Shown here one piece after another: positions 17,378 to 20,822 of a stretch of DNA of 64,000 nucleotides. The stretch spans positions 1 through 64,000 of the IMG/VR virus record IMGVR_UViG_3300020048_000063; one strand, written 5' to 3'. Under the pieces are notes generated by a model, which saw only the letters and a list, made by a program, of their open reading frames with translations, did no database searches and was not told where the DNA came from. The stretch is from a virus. How positions within the stretch are numbered: position 1 is the first letter of the stretch; each line of letters begins with the position of its first letter. Both the position numbers and the translations under genes were made by a program.

Positions 17378-17456
17378 TACACCAGAAGGGATTTGAACCC
17401 TCATTTTTCATTCCGTTATGCACATAGAGTTTAGGAAACTCCGCCATTACTGGTGC
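17378..17456 (-). tRNA. atypical D-armless tRNA-Arg(CCU)
   Basis: Acceptor GCACCAG/CUGGUGU, anticodon arm GGAGU-UUCCUAA-ACUCU, T arm GAGGG-UUCAAAU-CCCUU; no D arm. Confidence 0.65.
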
Positions 17457-17767
17457 GTATTTTTTTGTTCTAAAATATCAAACATCAAAGTTTTAACATT
17501 TTCAATAGTTTCTTTCAAATCCATATTATCAAGAATACTATTATGTACCGAACCAATTTCATTTGTAAAAAATTTTTGTTCTAATAAATTTTTTGTCATT
17601 GATAAACAAAACAGTTGAAGATCATATATATCCTCACCTTTGTCTAAAGATTTGCATCCCCAAAAATAAGAAACATATTCAGACTTAATATTTGATTCTC
17701 CTAAACTTAAAAGTTTTTTCTTGCGTTCCTCCTTAAGAACAGGCTGGTGTTTTATTTCTATAATCAT
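17447..17767 (-). CDS. hypothetical protein within tRNA cluster
   Basis: 106 aa; contains EERKKKL; stop codon lies inside the downstream tRNA. Confidence 0.55.
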   Translation of the reverse strand: MIIEIKHQPVLKEERKKKLLSLGESNIKSEYVSYFWGCKSLDKGEDIYDLQLFCLSMTKNLLEQKFFTNEIGSVHNSILDNMDLKETIENVKTLMFDILEQKNTHQ

Positions 17768-17779
17768 TTGTTAAAATAT

Positions 17780-17856
17780 TGGTGATCCTGGCAGGATTCA
17801 AACCTGCGACCTGAAAATTAGAAGTTTCCCGCTCTATTCAACTGAGCTACAAGACC
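17780..17856 (-). tRNA. tRNA-Arg(UCU)
   Basis: Canonical cloverleaf, loop CUUCUAA, encoded CCA. Confidence 0.93.
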
Positions 17857-17909
17857 ATTGATTTATATGTTCACATATTGGAATTAATTTAAAAAGTTTA
17901 AAAAATTTG

Positions 17910-17998
17910 AGCCATTTATTGGATTTGAACCAATGTGATGAGATGTCTCATACCTGCTTACGAGGCAGGTCTAATCAACCAGACTATAGGAAAATGGC
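17910..17998 (-). tRNA. tRNA-Thr(CGU), long variable arm
   Basis: GCCAUUU/AAAUGGC, loop CUCGUAA, 18-nt variable region. Confidence 0.8.
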
Positions 17999-18005
17999 AT
18001 TTTTG

Positions 18006-18089
18006 AGCCTTCGGCAGGATTCGAACCTGCGATGCGTGTGAACATCCTGCTTACAAGGCAGGCGGAGTCGACCTCTGTCCCACGAAGGC
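18006..18089 (-). tRNA. tRNA-Thr(UGU), long variable arm
   Basis: GCCUUCG/CGAAGGC, loop CUUGUAA, 15-nt variable region. Confidence 0.85.
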
Positions 18090-18096
18090 ATTTTTG

Positions 18097-18172
18097 TTGA
18101 TAGAGTGAGATTTGAACTCACGACCTTTTGCATGTCAAGCAAACGTTCTAGACCAGGCTGAACTACCTACCA
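18097..18172 (-). tRNA. tRNA-Val(GAC)
   Basis: Cloverleaf, loop UUGACAU. Confidence 0.88.
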
Positions 18173-18179
18173 ATATTTG

Positions 18180-18265
18180 TACTCCCAACAGGACTCGAAC
18201 CTGTATTATACTTCTCGTCTCCACTTTGTAGGAGTGGGATGTTTATCCAGTTACACTATAGGAGC
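18180..18265 (-). tRNA. tRNA-Val(UAC), long variable region, C33
   Basis: GCUCCUA/UGGGAGU, loop CCUACAA, 16-nt variable region. Confidence 0.78.
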
Positions 18266-18311
18266 ATAGTGATACTTTTTCCCTTAGTCTAAAAGTACCA
18301 AAAACCAAATG

Positions 18312-18398
18312 AGCGGCAAGTGAGATTCGAACTCACGGTGCGACTTTCGTCTTGCTGGATTGGCAACCCAGTTCCATCGTCCACTAGGAGATTACCGC
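18312..18398 (-). tRNA. tRNA-Gly(GCC), long variable arm
   Basis: GCGGUAA/UUGCCGC-U73, loop UUGCCAA, GAC-GAAA-GUC V arm. Confidence 0.85.
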
Positions 18399-18405
18399 AA
18401 TTTAT

Positions 18406-18481
18406 TGGAGCGATAGATGGGGCTCGAACCCACAACCTCAACCTTGGCAAGGTCGCAATCTACCAATTGATCTACTATCGC
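18406..18481 (-). tRNA. tRNA-Gly(GCC)
   Basis: Canonical cloverleaf, U73, encoded CCA. Confidence 0.93.
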
Positions 18482-18489
18482 AATGTTTG

Positions 18490-18576
18490 AGCGGTAGGTG
18501 GGATTCGAACCCACGACGTGAACTTTATCTGACTGGCTTGGAAGGCCAGTACCATCGACCACTAGGAGACTACCGC
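18490..18576 (-). tRNA. tRNA-Gly(UCC), long variable region
   Basis: GCGGUAG/CUACCGC-U73, loop CUUCCAA, 18-nt variable region. Confidence 0.85.
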
Positions 18577-18586
18577 GTCTTGAACT

Positions 18587-18653
18587 ACAGATTACTTTTT
18601 TTGGAATTTCAAATTACAAGTTTGGTCCTTTAAAGTTGCTGTAAGAAATCTTT
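18587..18653 (-). ncRNA. putative structured RNA, CAGCAA family
   Basis: AAAGAUUUC-UUACAGCAA...CAAA-CUUGUAA-UUUG...GUAAUCUGU. Confidence 0.55.
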
Positions 18654-18670
18654 AAGTTCGTTTTTTTAAG

Positions 18671-18725
18671 AACAGAATACATTTTTTCTCTTGGCATAGA
18701 TTTTTAATTGCTGAAAGTATTCTTT
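18671..18725 (-). ncRNA. putative structured RNA, AGAAUAC/CAGCAA family
   Basis: AAAGAAUAC-UUUCAGCAA...UGCCAA...GUAUUCUGUU. Confidence 0.6.
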
Positions 18726-18730
18726 ATCTT

Positions 18731-19187: not shown

Positions 19188-19191
19188 AAAA

Positions 19192-19254
19192 TGAATTTCT
19201 ATGCTTCGGTCTCTCCGCTGGAGTCCTTCTATGAAATTCTAACAGTCTCGGTCG
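19192..19254 (-). repeat. duplicated structured inter-tRNA element, copy 2
   Basis: GAGACUGUUAGAAUUUCAUAGAAG...GCAUAGAAAUUCA, nearly identical flanks to 19369-19422. Confidence 0.7.
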
Positions 19255-19361
19255 TGGGTAAAATTGGATTTGAACCAATCTAGAAAATCTGCGATAATCT
19301 TCTACTTCCTAATACAGTGCTACTTAGTCCGCGTTAACTAAGTTCTCATATCAATTTACCC
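19255..19361 (-). ncRNA. tRNA-like RNA with non-canonical core
   Basis: Acceptor GGGUAAA/UUUACCC-A and T arm AUUGG-UUCAAAU-CCAAU, with two long hairpins instead of D and anticodon arms. Confidence 0.6.
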
Positions 19362-19368
19362 AAAAAAT

Positions 19369-19422
19369 TGAATTTCTATGCAAGTCTTTCGGGACTTCTA
19401 TAAAATTCTAACAGTCTCCTCG
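19369..19422 (-). repeat. duplicated structured inter-tRNA element, copy 1
   Basis: GAGACUGUUAGAAUUUUAUAGAAGUCCCGAAAGACUUGCAUAGAAAUUCA. Confidence 0.7.
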
Positions 19423-19499
19423 TGGAGGATAAGGAATTCGAATCCTTCTGATATTCCGCATTGCAAGTGCGGCGACCACTCCCAGCAGTCCCATCTCCC
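19423..19499 (-). tRNA. tRNA-Ala(UGC), atypical
   Basis: G3:U70, loop CUUGCAA; A4-C69 mismatch and G8G9. Confidence 0.78.
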
Positions 19500-19506
19500 A
19501 ATTTTG

Positions 19507-19580
19507 TGGAGTTAGTGGGACTCAAACCCACGACCTCTTGAATGCAAATCAAGCGTTCTATTCATCTGAACTATAACCCC
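19507..19580 (-). tRNA. tRNA-Ala(UGC)
   Basis: Canonical cloverleaf, G3:U70, loop UUUGCAU. Confidence 0.9.
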
Positions 19581-19586
19581 ATTTTG

Positions 19587-19664
19587 AAGCCTAGGAGGGA
19601 TTCGAACCCTCATTTTCAATCCGTTATGCGTCTAGAGTTTAGAAAACTCCGCCATTACTAAGCC
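19587..19664 (-). tRNA. atypical D-armless tRNA-Arg(UCU)
   Basis: Paralog of 17378-17456; GGAGU-UUUCUAA-ACUCU, T arm GAGGG-UUCGAAU-CCCUC. Confidence 0.65.
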
Positions 19665-19670
19665 AATTTG

Positions 19671-19762
19671 TCGGGATGAGAGGATTTGAACCTCCAGAGG
19701 TATTTGTATAACCACCCGCTTCCAGGGCGGGACCGCTGCTCTCATTACGGGCTTACACCCCG
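19671..19762 (-). tRNA. tRNA-Pro(UGG), enlarged D and variable regions, C33
   Basis: C1-G72, A73, loop CCUGGAA, 19-nt variable region. Confidence 0.75.
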
Positions 19763-19767
19763 ATATG

Positions 19768-19840
19768 TAGAATAGGTGAGACTCGAACTCACGACCCCTT
19801 GCTCCCAAAGCAAGTACGCTACCAACTGCGCTACTACTCT
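19768..19840 (-). tRNA. tRNA-Pro(UGG)
   Basis: Canonical cloverleaf, loop UUUGGGA. Confidence 0.9.
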
Positions 19841-19878
19841 ATTTTAATTCCAATATGTCAAAGAACAAATTTGTTCTA

Positions 19879-20556
19879 TTATCTCATTTTATTATATACA
19901 AGTCTATCTGAACCTGTTGAAACTTCTATCACTTTTATATCTTCGTCAAAGTCTTTACGCCTTGATATAGAGAAAAGTTCCATATTATTATCGTTTAATA
20001 TTATATCTATTGTTTCATCTGAATAAGATGGTAATCTATCTGATTTTTCCAATCTTGCATCTTTTACATATCTATTCACATAATTCAAGCAACATTCAAG
20101 TATTTGTGGGTAATAATCATTATTAGTATTTTTAGAAAAGAATATTTGATATTCTATTTGGTAAAATTCTTTTAATCTCATATTACTCAATGTTTTATCT
20201 TGTTCTTTTCTAAACGATTTATTATGTTGATATACAACTAATGGTAATCTGTATTTTATTTCATTATGAACATTCAAAAGATGTTTGGCGTACACATAAG
20301 AACTTTTTGTACTTTCGGGTCTAAGAGCCAAATCATCAAAATTTTGTAAGAACACATCATCTTTTGTATAATTTTCGTTTATTAATTCTTTTGGAATGAA
20401 TAAGGGTGCATCAACTTTAACAAATCTAAATGCTGAGTTCATTTTCATTAAACATTCTTTTAATTCCATAGTCAACATTTTTTCAAAGAATTCTTTTAGA
20501 AGAATTTCTTTTTCGTCCCAGAACATCAAACTATTTTTTTCGTATAAATTTTTCAT
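19879..20556 (-). CDS. minimal class II aminoacyl-tRNA synthetase catalytic domain, GlyRS(alpha2)-like
   Basis: LRPES; motif 2 Q..KSFRKE...MRLKEFYQIEYQIF; DRL..YS..T.D; motif 3 VIEVSTGSDRL; no anticodon-binding domain. Confidence 0.75.
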   Translation of the reverse strand: MKNLYEKNSLMFWDEKEILLKEFFEKMLTMELKECLMKMNSAFRFVKVDAPLFIPKELINENYTKDDVFLQNFDDLALRPESTKSSYVYAKHLLNVHNEIKYRLPLVVYQHNKSFRKEQDKTLSNMRLKEFYQIEYQIFFSKNTNNDYYPQILECCLNYVNRYVKDARLEKSDRLPSYSDETIDIILNDNNMELFSISRRKDFDEDIKVIEVSTGSDRLVYNKMR

Positions 20557-20601
20557 TTTTTTACCTTTTTAATTCTTTTTAACAATTTTTAGTCATATAA
20601 C

Positions 20602-20642
20602 AAAAAACCCGAAAGTTATTTTATTTACTTTCGGGTTTTTTT
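20602..20642 (-). terminator. attenuator terminator
   Basis: AAAAAAACCCGAAAGU-loop-ACUUUCGGGUUUUUU between leader peptide and GlyRS-like gene. Confidence 0.85.
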
Positions 20643-20660
20643 ATTATATTCTTTTTGAAA

Positions 20661-20768
20661 TCATCGTTCAAATAGGTACAATACACCCGAAAGCGTGCCT
20701 GCTGGTCTGCCTCCTGTTACGGGGGCTGTTGCGGTCACCACGGTTGTATTTGTCCTCAAGTTGTTCAT
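20661..20768 (-). CDS. attenuation leader peptide (35 aa) MNNLRTNTTVVTATAPVTGGRPAGTLSGVLYLFER
   Basis: Manual translation. Codons 8-25 are all T/V/A/P/G/R; contains CUUUCGGGU complementary to the terminator 5' arm. Confidence 0.8.
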   Translation of the reverse strand: MNNLRTNTTVVTATAPVTGGRPAGTLSGVLYLFER

Positions 20769-20814
20769 AATTTCTATTTATTTAATTGTTTGTTATTATT
20801 TCCGAATTGTTTTA

Positions 20815-20822
20815 CAAAAGTA
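20815..20822 (-). promoter_or_regulatory. Bacteroidota-type -7 element (TACTTTTG) of the tRNA operon
   Basis: TAnnTTTG with upstream T-tract, about 45 nt before the leader ATG. Confidence 0.7.

Follow-up and report, generated by a model that had tools for sequence, protein, structure and literature searches.

A probable multivalent leader-peptide attenuator ahead of a tRNA array in a large phage genome

The DNA analysed here is a stretch of 64,000 nucleotides (nt) from the virus record IMGVR_UViG_3300020048_000063 (hereafter the window), and the element under study is a short leader on its minus strand, upstream of a gene resembling glycyl-tRNA synthetase (GlyRS-like) and of a tRNA array. We consider it likely that this leader is a multivalent, ribosome-mediated attenuator of the trp/thr/ilv type, which heads the GlyRS-like gene and an array of tRNAs for Pro, Arg, Ala, Thr, Gly and Val, and that the phage would probably make the array tRNAs only when ribosomes read the codons of these six amino acids slowly. 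Four features of this class were found, namely a conserved short open frame, regulatory codons matched to the array, an intrinsic terminator, and an antiterminator that excludes the terminator. An earlier reading of this DNA, made without database searches (the sequence-only reading), had proposed the same interpretation, which is supported; the computational checks that it had named, described below, each came out in its favour.

Direct reading of the minus strand confirmed the two elements on which that proposal was built, an open reading frame (ORF) of 35 codons plus TGA at 20768 to 20661 (ATG at 20768 to 20766 and TGA at 20663 to 20661) and an intrinsic terminator at 20642 to 20602. Codons 8 to 25 of the ORF (20747 to 20694) constitute the regulatory run, in which all 18 consecutive codons specify Thr, Val, Ala, Pro, Gly or Arg as had been claimed, in comparison to a maximum of two consecutive codons of this set in either of the other frames. 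The shuffling results showed that none of 20,000 dinucleotide-preserving shuffles contained a run of 18 in any frame, the longest run being 16 codons and the typical one 4 to 6. Such three-base phasing is not expected of an RNA that is merely GC-rich.

The composition of the run was then compared with that of the array. All recognised tRNAs of the array carry one of the six amino acids and no other, so the earlier claim that the tRNAs cover precisely this set held for every one of them. The sequence-only reading had further claimed that the leader contains an exact codon for ten of the 11 distinct anticodons of the array, and this count was reproduced, with only GUC, the codon for Val GAC, being absent. 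Given the peptide, the probability of such coverage is 0.007 if codons are drawn according to phage codon usage and 0.04 if usage is uniform, and codon-for-anticodon matching in the window is modestly above expectation. In the distant phages described below, exact matches were found for 21 of 38 anticodons, and exact matching is not general there; the robust match between leader and array is at the level of the amino acid.

The terminator consists of a GC-rich stem of 9 base pairs (bp), formed by the 5' arm ACCCGAAAG at 20636 to 20628 and the 3' arm CTTTCGGGT at 20615 to 20607, with an A-tract before the stem and a T-run at 20607 to 20602. As the sequence-only reading had noticed, the 9-mer CTTTCGGGT recurs inside the ORF at 20693 to 20685 (codons 26 to 28, referred to as segment 2), where it is identical to the terminator 3' arm and can pair with the 5' arm when an upstream strand, segment 1, is masked. 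Segment 1 (20756 to 20741, codons 5 to 10) is a candidate anti-antiterminator strand, which in the minimum free energy (MFE) fold of the window pairs with 20689 to 20674 (codons 27 to 32) to give what we call the 1:2 helix.

To find relatives, the 35-residue peptide was searched by phmmer against 1.8 billion representatives, which returned two called peptides (P0121 and P0122) of 33 and 34 residues and 75% to 78% identity, and back-translated searches yielded six DNA loci from other metagenomes, two on viral contigs (L038 and L039) and four in JGI metagenomes (L040 to L043). There are thus eight leader homologues, or nine sequences with the window included, of which seven are DNA. The six loci share a common layout, with a promoter box, a like start context, an open frame of 32 to 35 codons and a terminator, directly 3' of which stands a tRNA-Pro(UGG) with no gene between. 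Conservation in relatives had been named as a check by the sequence-only reading, and the leader ORF, terminator and antiterminator are kept in all six loci. Insertions and deletions within the ORF among the seven DNA sequences are all multiples of three (+6, +3 and -3), in comparison to arbitrary lengths in the flanking non-coding DNA, and about ten differences among the family ORFs are synonymous. Replacements within the run all remain among the six amino acids, and the run measures 16 to 19 codons in the nine sequences. Two blocks are nearly invariant at the nucleotide level, a mid-run block of six codons and the stretch that holds segment 2. The orthologous arrays of L039 and the window have all 11 anticodons in common. 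The protein genes upstream of these two loci, the only pair compared, are unrelated, and the leader module thus travels with the array.

The pairing between segment 2 and the terminator 5' arm amounts to 9 bp in the window and to 7 contiguous bp in five other loci, i.e., it is intact in six of the seven. At the seventh pair four loci carry A-U and two (L039 and L042) carry G-C, and L043 has A.C. L039 and L042, which belong to different subgroups, have G for A in the 5' arm together with C for U in segment 2, a compensatory change, and the terminator 3' arm there keeps a G-U pair. When a 30-nt ribosome footprint was placed on the early codons of the run and the nascent RNA was folded as far as the 5' arm, the antiterminator formed in all three loci folded (the window, L038 and L039).

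Further evidence came from leaders of other arrays. The nearest GenBank relatives of the window are two uncultured phages of ~630 kb, LR756504.1 and LR745206.1, with a similarity of 69% to 75% over parts of one gene only. Their tRNAs were listed and 12 cluster starts were examined, and a short ORF (27 to 38 codons) followed by a strong terminator was found ahead of six of them. The leader core is rich in His, Lys, Phe, Ser and Trp where the array is of His, Phe, Trp, Lys, Arg and Ser tRNAs (L044); in Met, Asn, Leu, Thr, Val and Ile where it is of Asn, Arg, Leu, Val, Ile, Thr and Met (L046); in Pro, Gln and Asp for Pro, Asp and Gln (L047); in Ile, Ala, Val, Glu and Gly for Glu, Ala, Ile, Val and Gly (L050); and in Phe and His for His and Phe (L052), while in L055 Leu, Ser and Cys alternate ahead of an array of Leu, Ser and Cys. 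The runs matching the own array in the window and the six distant leaders were 18, 9, 20, 8, 16, 4 and 11 codons, in comparison to 0 to 7 for other arrays (11 in one case), and among the 5,040 permutations of the leader-to-array assignment for these seven only the true one reached, on both measures, the total observed. In all six distant leaders the terminator 5' arm also has an antiterminator pairing, of up to 16 bp, with the 3' part of the leader ORF, and most of these leaders share an N-terminal pattern with the window leader. In four of the six arrays only 15 to 22 nt separate the terminator from the first tRNA, which leaves little or no room for another promoter. Other tRNA clusters had been suggested earlier as a place where leaders might track local tRNAs, and in these related giant phages they do so at the amino-acid level.

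Based on these observations, the following sequence of events may be envisaged. Transcription would start a few bases past a TAnnTTTG box, and a ribosome would load on the A-rich leader and translate the 35-codon ORF. With charged tRNAs plentiful, the ribosome would keep pace with transcription and would have reached segment 2 or the stretch just beyond it, close to the stop codon, by the time the 5' arm emerges; the 5' arm would then pair with the 3' arm, formation of the antiterminator would be prevented, and transcription would end at 20602. If the codons of even one of the six amino acids were read slowly, the ribosome would instead stall within the run and leave segment 2 (20693 to 20685) free to pair with the 5' arm (20636 to 20628), in which case the terminator would not form and transcription would continue through the GlyRS-like gene and the array. 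The tRNAs so produced would relieve the stall and so exert negative feedback on tRNA supply, a loop that would be self-limiting because its products are the tRNAs consumed by the leader. We infer that the leader ORF is translated and that the switch acts in this direction, i.e., that it is the state of smooth translation which terminates, and the trigger for stalling could be the codon demand of the phage itself, cleavage of host tRNAs by anticodon nucleases, or starvation.

Several observations weigh against this model or limit the evidence for it. The in-frame insertions and deletions lie partly within a stretch of 3-nt periodicity, where slippage alone gives multiples of three, and the family members are closely related, so that part of the conservation reflects shared ancestry. 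The A.C mismatch at antiterminator pair 7 of L043 also counts against it. The proposed 1:2 helix does occur in the MFE fold of the window, but a C-G pair within it is disrupted in four of the seven loci, it has no covariation support, and it is not the MFE structure in L038 or L039, where the free nascent RNA already favours the antiterminator thermodynamically; we treat it as an unconfirmed candidate. In addition, the core of segment 2 lies 8 codons 5' of the stop codon, and a ribosome at the stop would not cover it. With the helix unsupported and a stop-codon ribosome off the core of segment 2, termination would therefore have to rely on kinetics and on a ribosome between segments 2 and 3. 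A match to TAnnTTTG occurs inside the GlyRS-like gene at 20428 to 20421, and an internal promoter is possible in the window phage. Finally, no leader was found at six of the 12 clusters of the two ~630-kb phages, nor by a simple leader-terminator screen of the tRNA regions of Prevotella phage Lak-B1.

One alternative is a leader-peptide attenuator that reports general translation capacity or amino-acid starvation through aminoacylation and not particular tRNAs, its match to the array being a by-product of the sorting of arrays by amino acid. It is established knowledge that the classical trp, his and thr attenuators respond to charged tRNA and not to tRNA amount, and the weakness of exact codon-anticodon matching in the distant phages (21/38) would fit such a sensor. 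We nevertheless regard it as unlikely, in that more tRNA transcription cannot cure amino-acid starvation, which would leave the feedback without purpose, and in that the family leader, among whose codons are rare ones with dedicated array tRNAs, covers ten of the 11 anticodons at the probabilities given above (0.007 to 0.04).

Our starting hypothesis, suspected because of the GC-rich island itself and because of a GC content at third codon positions (GC3) unlike that of phage genes, was a structured RNA that is not translated and in which the open frame is incidental. Such an RNA would be either a small RNA standing alone, with a promoter and a terminator of its own, or a leader of the riboswitch or T-box kind by which a ligand, a protein or tRNA is sensed directly. 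The ORF has a GC content of 50% in comparison to a background of ~22%, as is typical for RNA genes of AT-rich genomes; its GC3 is 0.49 in comparison to 0.16 in the long ORFs of the phage, and its codon usage is unlike theirs; the ORF region folds as a long hairpin (z = -2.2); and the two conserved blocks do not vary even at the third positions of codons. The hypothesis was dropped after the frame-specific shuffle test and the comparative data, and we now consider it improbable. The run of in-set codons is confined to one frame, and frame, start and stop are kept in the eight homologues, with in-frame insertions and deletions and many synonymous changes. An Rfam scan of 17000 to 21500 at E values up to 1 gave tRNAs and chance-level matches only and nothing on the leader, T-box included, and no known RNA therefore accounts for it. 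Moreover, the unrelated leaders of other arrays encode the amino acids of their own arrays, for which there would be no reason without translation. We also considered, and set aside, a stretch resembling AGGAGG within the invariant block and a loose likeness to SecM-type arrest motifs.

It is hardly credible that the ORF encodes a small functional peptide, with the terminator merely ending its transcript and the array transcribed from elsewhere: the ORF does have a promoter-like box and a terminator of its own, and two blocks of the peptide are invariant across the nine sequences, but the peptide has no protein-family match, the cores of the peptides of other arrays are wholly different and follow the amino acids of those arrays, pairing between the terminator arm and the 3' part of the frame was seen in each of the three family loci folded and in the six distant ones, and the short gaps before the first tRNA in four of six distant arrays, like the lack of an intervening gene in L038 to L043, leave little or no room for a promoter.

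Given that leaders recur in the distant 630-kb phages, attenuation of tRNA arrays is probably a general principle. A more far-reaching and tentative proposal, which we hold to be possible and somewhat doubtful, is that some giant phages run a modular tRNA homeostat, in which arrays sorted by amino acid would stand behind their own leaders, each sampling every isoacceptor including those for rare codons, so that the loss of single tRNAs through host anticodon nucleases or the phage's own demand would be detected and those tRNAs alone replaced, with the GlyRS-like core and the long-arm tRNAs described below as parts of the kit.

With respect to the promoter, the Bacteroidota-type -7 box TAnnTTTG of the window lies at 20822 to 20815 on the minus strand and is separated from the ORF by an A-rich untranslated stretch. 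Matches to this motif are not enriched in the AT-rich window (137 in comparison to 124 +/- 11 expected), and the motif by itself does not bear out the promoter that had been claimed; the box does form a single aligned column across the seven family loci, ~45 to 60 nt before the ATG, and it is this positional conservation alone which suggests a promoter role. Alignment of the family loci also revealed a conserved upstream block of ~30 nt (20898 to 20866, minus strand), ~45 to 75 nt before the box, which is kept although the upstream protein genes are unrelated in the pair compared (the window and L039); it may serve as a regulatory site or belong to the end of the preceding transcript. In LR745206.1 (L044 to L047) the leaders have in common a promoter box with a small GC hairpin behind it and then an AT-rich motif immediately 5' of the ATG, and in L045 (array B) a tRNA-Met directly follows the shared promoter motif with no leader ORF; one promoter type therefore serves attenuated and unattenuated arrays. 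Within the run of the window leader, a GC-rich hairpin at 20726 to 20709 (minus strand) appears in the MFE folds and may be a pause hairpin. Its outer three pairs are kept in every family locus, with one C-to-U change retained as G-U, and its 3' half begins the nearly invariant block of six codons.

The first gene after the attenuator is the GlyRS-like gene (20556 to 19879, minus strand), which starts 45 nt past the terminator and encodes a class II catalytic core of 225 amino acids matching Pfam tRNA-synt_2b and the cores of glycine-tRNA ligases in PDB (E ~1e-5). The protein is nearest to glycine-tRNA ligases and is truncated, being without the anticodon-binding domain. The sequence-only reading had placed this gene after the terminator, where it was found; it is not at the corresponding position in L038 to L043 and is therefore a lineage-specific insertion between attenuator and array, restricted to the lineage of the window. 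A total of 246 homologues was found, which in IMG/VR are on long virus contigs of up to ~560 kb, usually embedded in tRNA arrays or among protein genes, and no leader was present upstream of the homologues at 28 viral loci and in two GenBank phages. Between the GlyRS-like stop codon and the first tRNA is a perfect palindrome of 14 nt (19876 to 19863), 3' of which follows the tRNA-Pro 5' leader that is conserved in the relatives, where it comes directly after the terminator; this marks the downstream edge of the insertion.

The tRNA array occupies 19840 to 17378 on the minus strand and was delineated by ARAGORN, Rfam and manual reading. Its order is Pro UGG (two copies), Arg UCU, Ala UGC (two copies), a tRNA-like RNA, Thr GGU, Gly UCC, Gly GCC (two copies), Val UAC, Val GAC, Thr UGU, Thr CGU, Arg UCU and Arg CCU, and two protein-coding frames lie within it on the same strand, a NUDIX gene (19090 to 18731) and an ORF of 106 amino acids (17767 to 17447). 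ARAGORN found 12 tRNAs and Rfam 13 above the gathering score, with a union of 14. The number of 15 claimed earlier is reached with a 95-nt gene of Pro-UGG type at 19762 to 19668, which was recognised by manual reading and by homology to the 92-nt tRNA-Pro of L041. An Arg UCU gene (19664 to 19587) and the Arg CCU gene (17456 to 17378) are non-canonical and were assigned by manual reading of a canonical 7-nt loop. These two are paralogous tRNA-like genes, which score barely over the Rfam cut-off and are without an ordinary D arm; counterparts occur in L039 (1348 to 1424 and 4803 to 4885) and L038 (4752 to 4831), and ARAGORN under relaxed settings gives them other folds, read as Ile or Leu, which leaves their identity uncertain.

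Other features of the array are recorded here as separate observations. Six tRNAs for Thr, Val, Gly and Pro are long, at 85 to 95 nt (17998 to 17909, 18089 to 18005, 18265 to 18179, 18398 to 18311, 18576 to 18489 and 19762 to 19668, minus strand), with insertions that resemble long variable arms in isotypes that are normally short-armed; some of them adjoin a tRNA of canonical length with the same anticodon (Gly GCC), and long forms are also present in L038, L040 and L041. The tRNA-like RNA (19361 to 19255, minus strand) measures 107 nt and has acceptor and T arms with no clear anticodon arm. On either side of it is a copy of a repeat of ~55 nt (19418 to 19368 and 19249 to 19192), which also occurs between tRNAs of L038 (~4292 to 4345). 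Just 3' of the NUDIX gene is a small hairpin RNA (18722 to 18673, minus strand) that weakly matches Dicty_Class_I_RNA at 30 bits, below the cut-off, and its counterpart in L039 (2848 to 2899) matches at 41.7 bits, barely over it. The hairpin is almost certainly not a member of this family and is a conserved small RNA within the array. The arrays of the relatives carry endonuclease-like genes of the HNH, DUF559 and zinc-ribbon kinds between tRNAs (L039 3461 to 4162 and 1912 to 2778; L040 631 to 1509). These are likely homing endonucleases, which may explain the shuffled content of the arrays.

The window, with a GC content of ~28%, is the first 64 kb of a virus contig of 98.8 kb, for which CheckV gives a completeness of 14%, and the source genome is therefore probably several hundred kb long. 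Neither the leader nor a tRNA array occurs a second time in the 98.8-kb contig. Its end beyond the window (94000 to 98800) is much GC-richer than the rest, with many 60-nt windows of at least 47%, and may be a different sequence type or an assembly join. A search of GenBank phages with the leader (blastn and tblastn) gave only AT-rich look-alikes of the promoter and untranslated region, and a match in Lak-B1 proved to be a promoter before a protein gene. Exact 20- to 21-mers and the pattern of segment 2 followed by the two terminator arms had no match when searched for in viral contigs.

Why and when phages use the tRNA genes that they carry is a long-standing question. A leader attenuator ahead of a tRNA array would be evidence, read directly from the genome, that a phage gauges the decoding speed of each codon family and adjusts its tRNA supply, and with it the targets of trp-type attenuation would come to include a new class, namely the tRNAs consumed by the sensor itself, which closes the feedback loop. 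It would also offer a testable handle on how phage tRNAs relate to host defences that target tRNAs and to codon usage, as well as a compact natural part for switches that respond to tRNA.

Among known systems, the multivalent attenuators of enterobacterial amino-acid operons are among the closest in architecture, the thr leader sensing Thr and Ile and the ilvGMEDA leader Ile, Leu and Val. Like the phage element, they have a short ORF dense in codons of several regulatory amino acids with a stop codon before the terminator, an intrinsic terminator just downstream, and an exclusive antiterminator that uses the terminator 5' arm. The phage element differs from them in that it would regulate tRNA genes, together with a synthetase-like gene, and not biosynthetic enzymes, in that six amino acids would be sensed, in being phage-borne with a Bacteroidota-type promoter, and in having a 1:2 helix that is only a candidate; there is no sequence similarity, and the amino-acid leaders of Rfam (Thr, His, Trp, Leu and similar) were unmatched at E values up to 1. 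In E. coli the pheST synthetase operon is attenuated through the Phe-rich leader peptide of pheM, and this resembles the phage case in that a leader-peptide attenuator governs a part of the decoding apparatus which corresponds to the amino acid sensed. The pheM/pheST system is cellular, controls a synthetase and senses one amino acid, while the main cargo of the phage leader is tRNAs and the synthetase-like gene is optional. The T-box riboswitch binds uncharged tRNA directly, via a specifier codon and the T-box sequence and without translation. It shares with the proposed attenuator the control of translation-apparatus genes by terminator and antiterminator and the reporting of a specific tRNA; the phage leader gives no match at E values up to 1 to the T-box family (RF00230), whose marks are a stem I with a specifier loop, the T-box sequence and an antiterminator bulge pairing with the 3' end of the tRNA, and the evidence favours a translated frame.

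A full-text literature search returned no report of leader-peptide attenuation of tRNA genes, in agreement with the sequence-only reading, to which no described phage attenuator of a tRNA array was known, and the nearest system in print is a cellular array. In Anabaena sp. PCC 7120 the trn operon is a long tRNA array that is silent and is induced when translation is impaired (PMC8421152), and it is controlled by the transcriptional repressor TrcR (PMC10272220). The two systems are alike in that a supernumerary tRNA array is, or in the phage would be, switched on under translational stress. They differ in that the Anabaena array, as far as these accounts describe it, is under repressor control with no leader peptide and is cellular, plasmid-borne and a single array not sorted by amino acid, in comparison to the phage array, which carries tRNAs for six amino acids behind a leader that encodes the same six.

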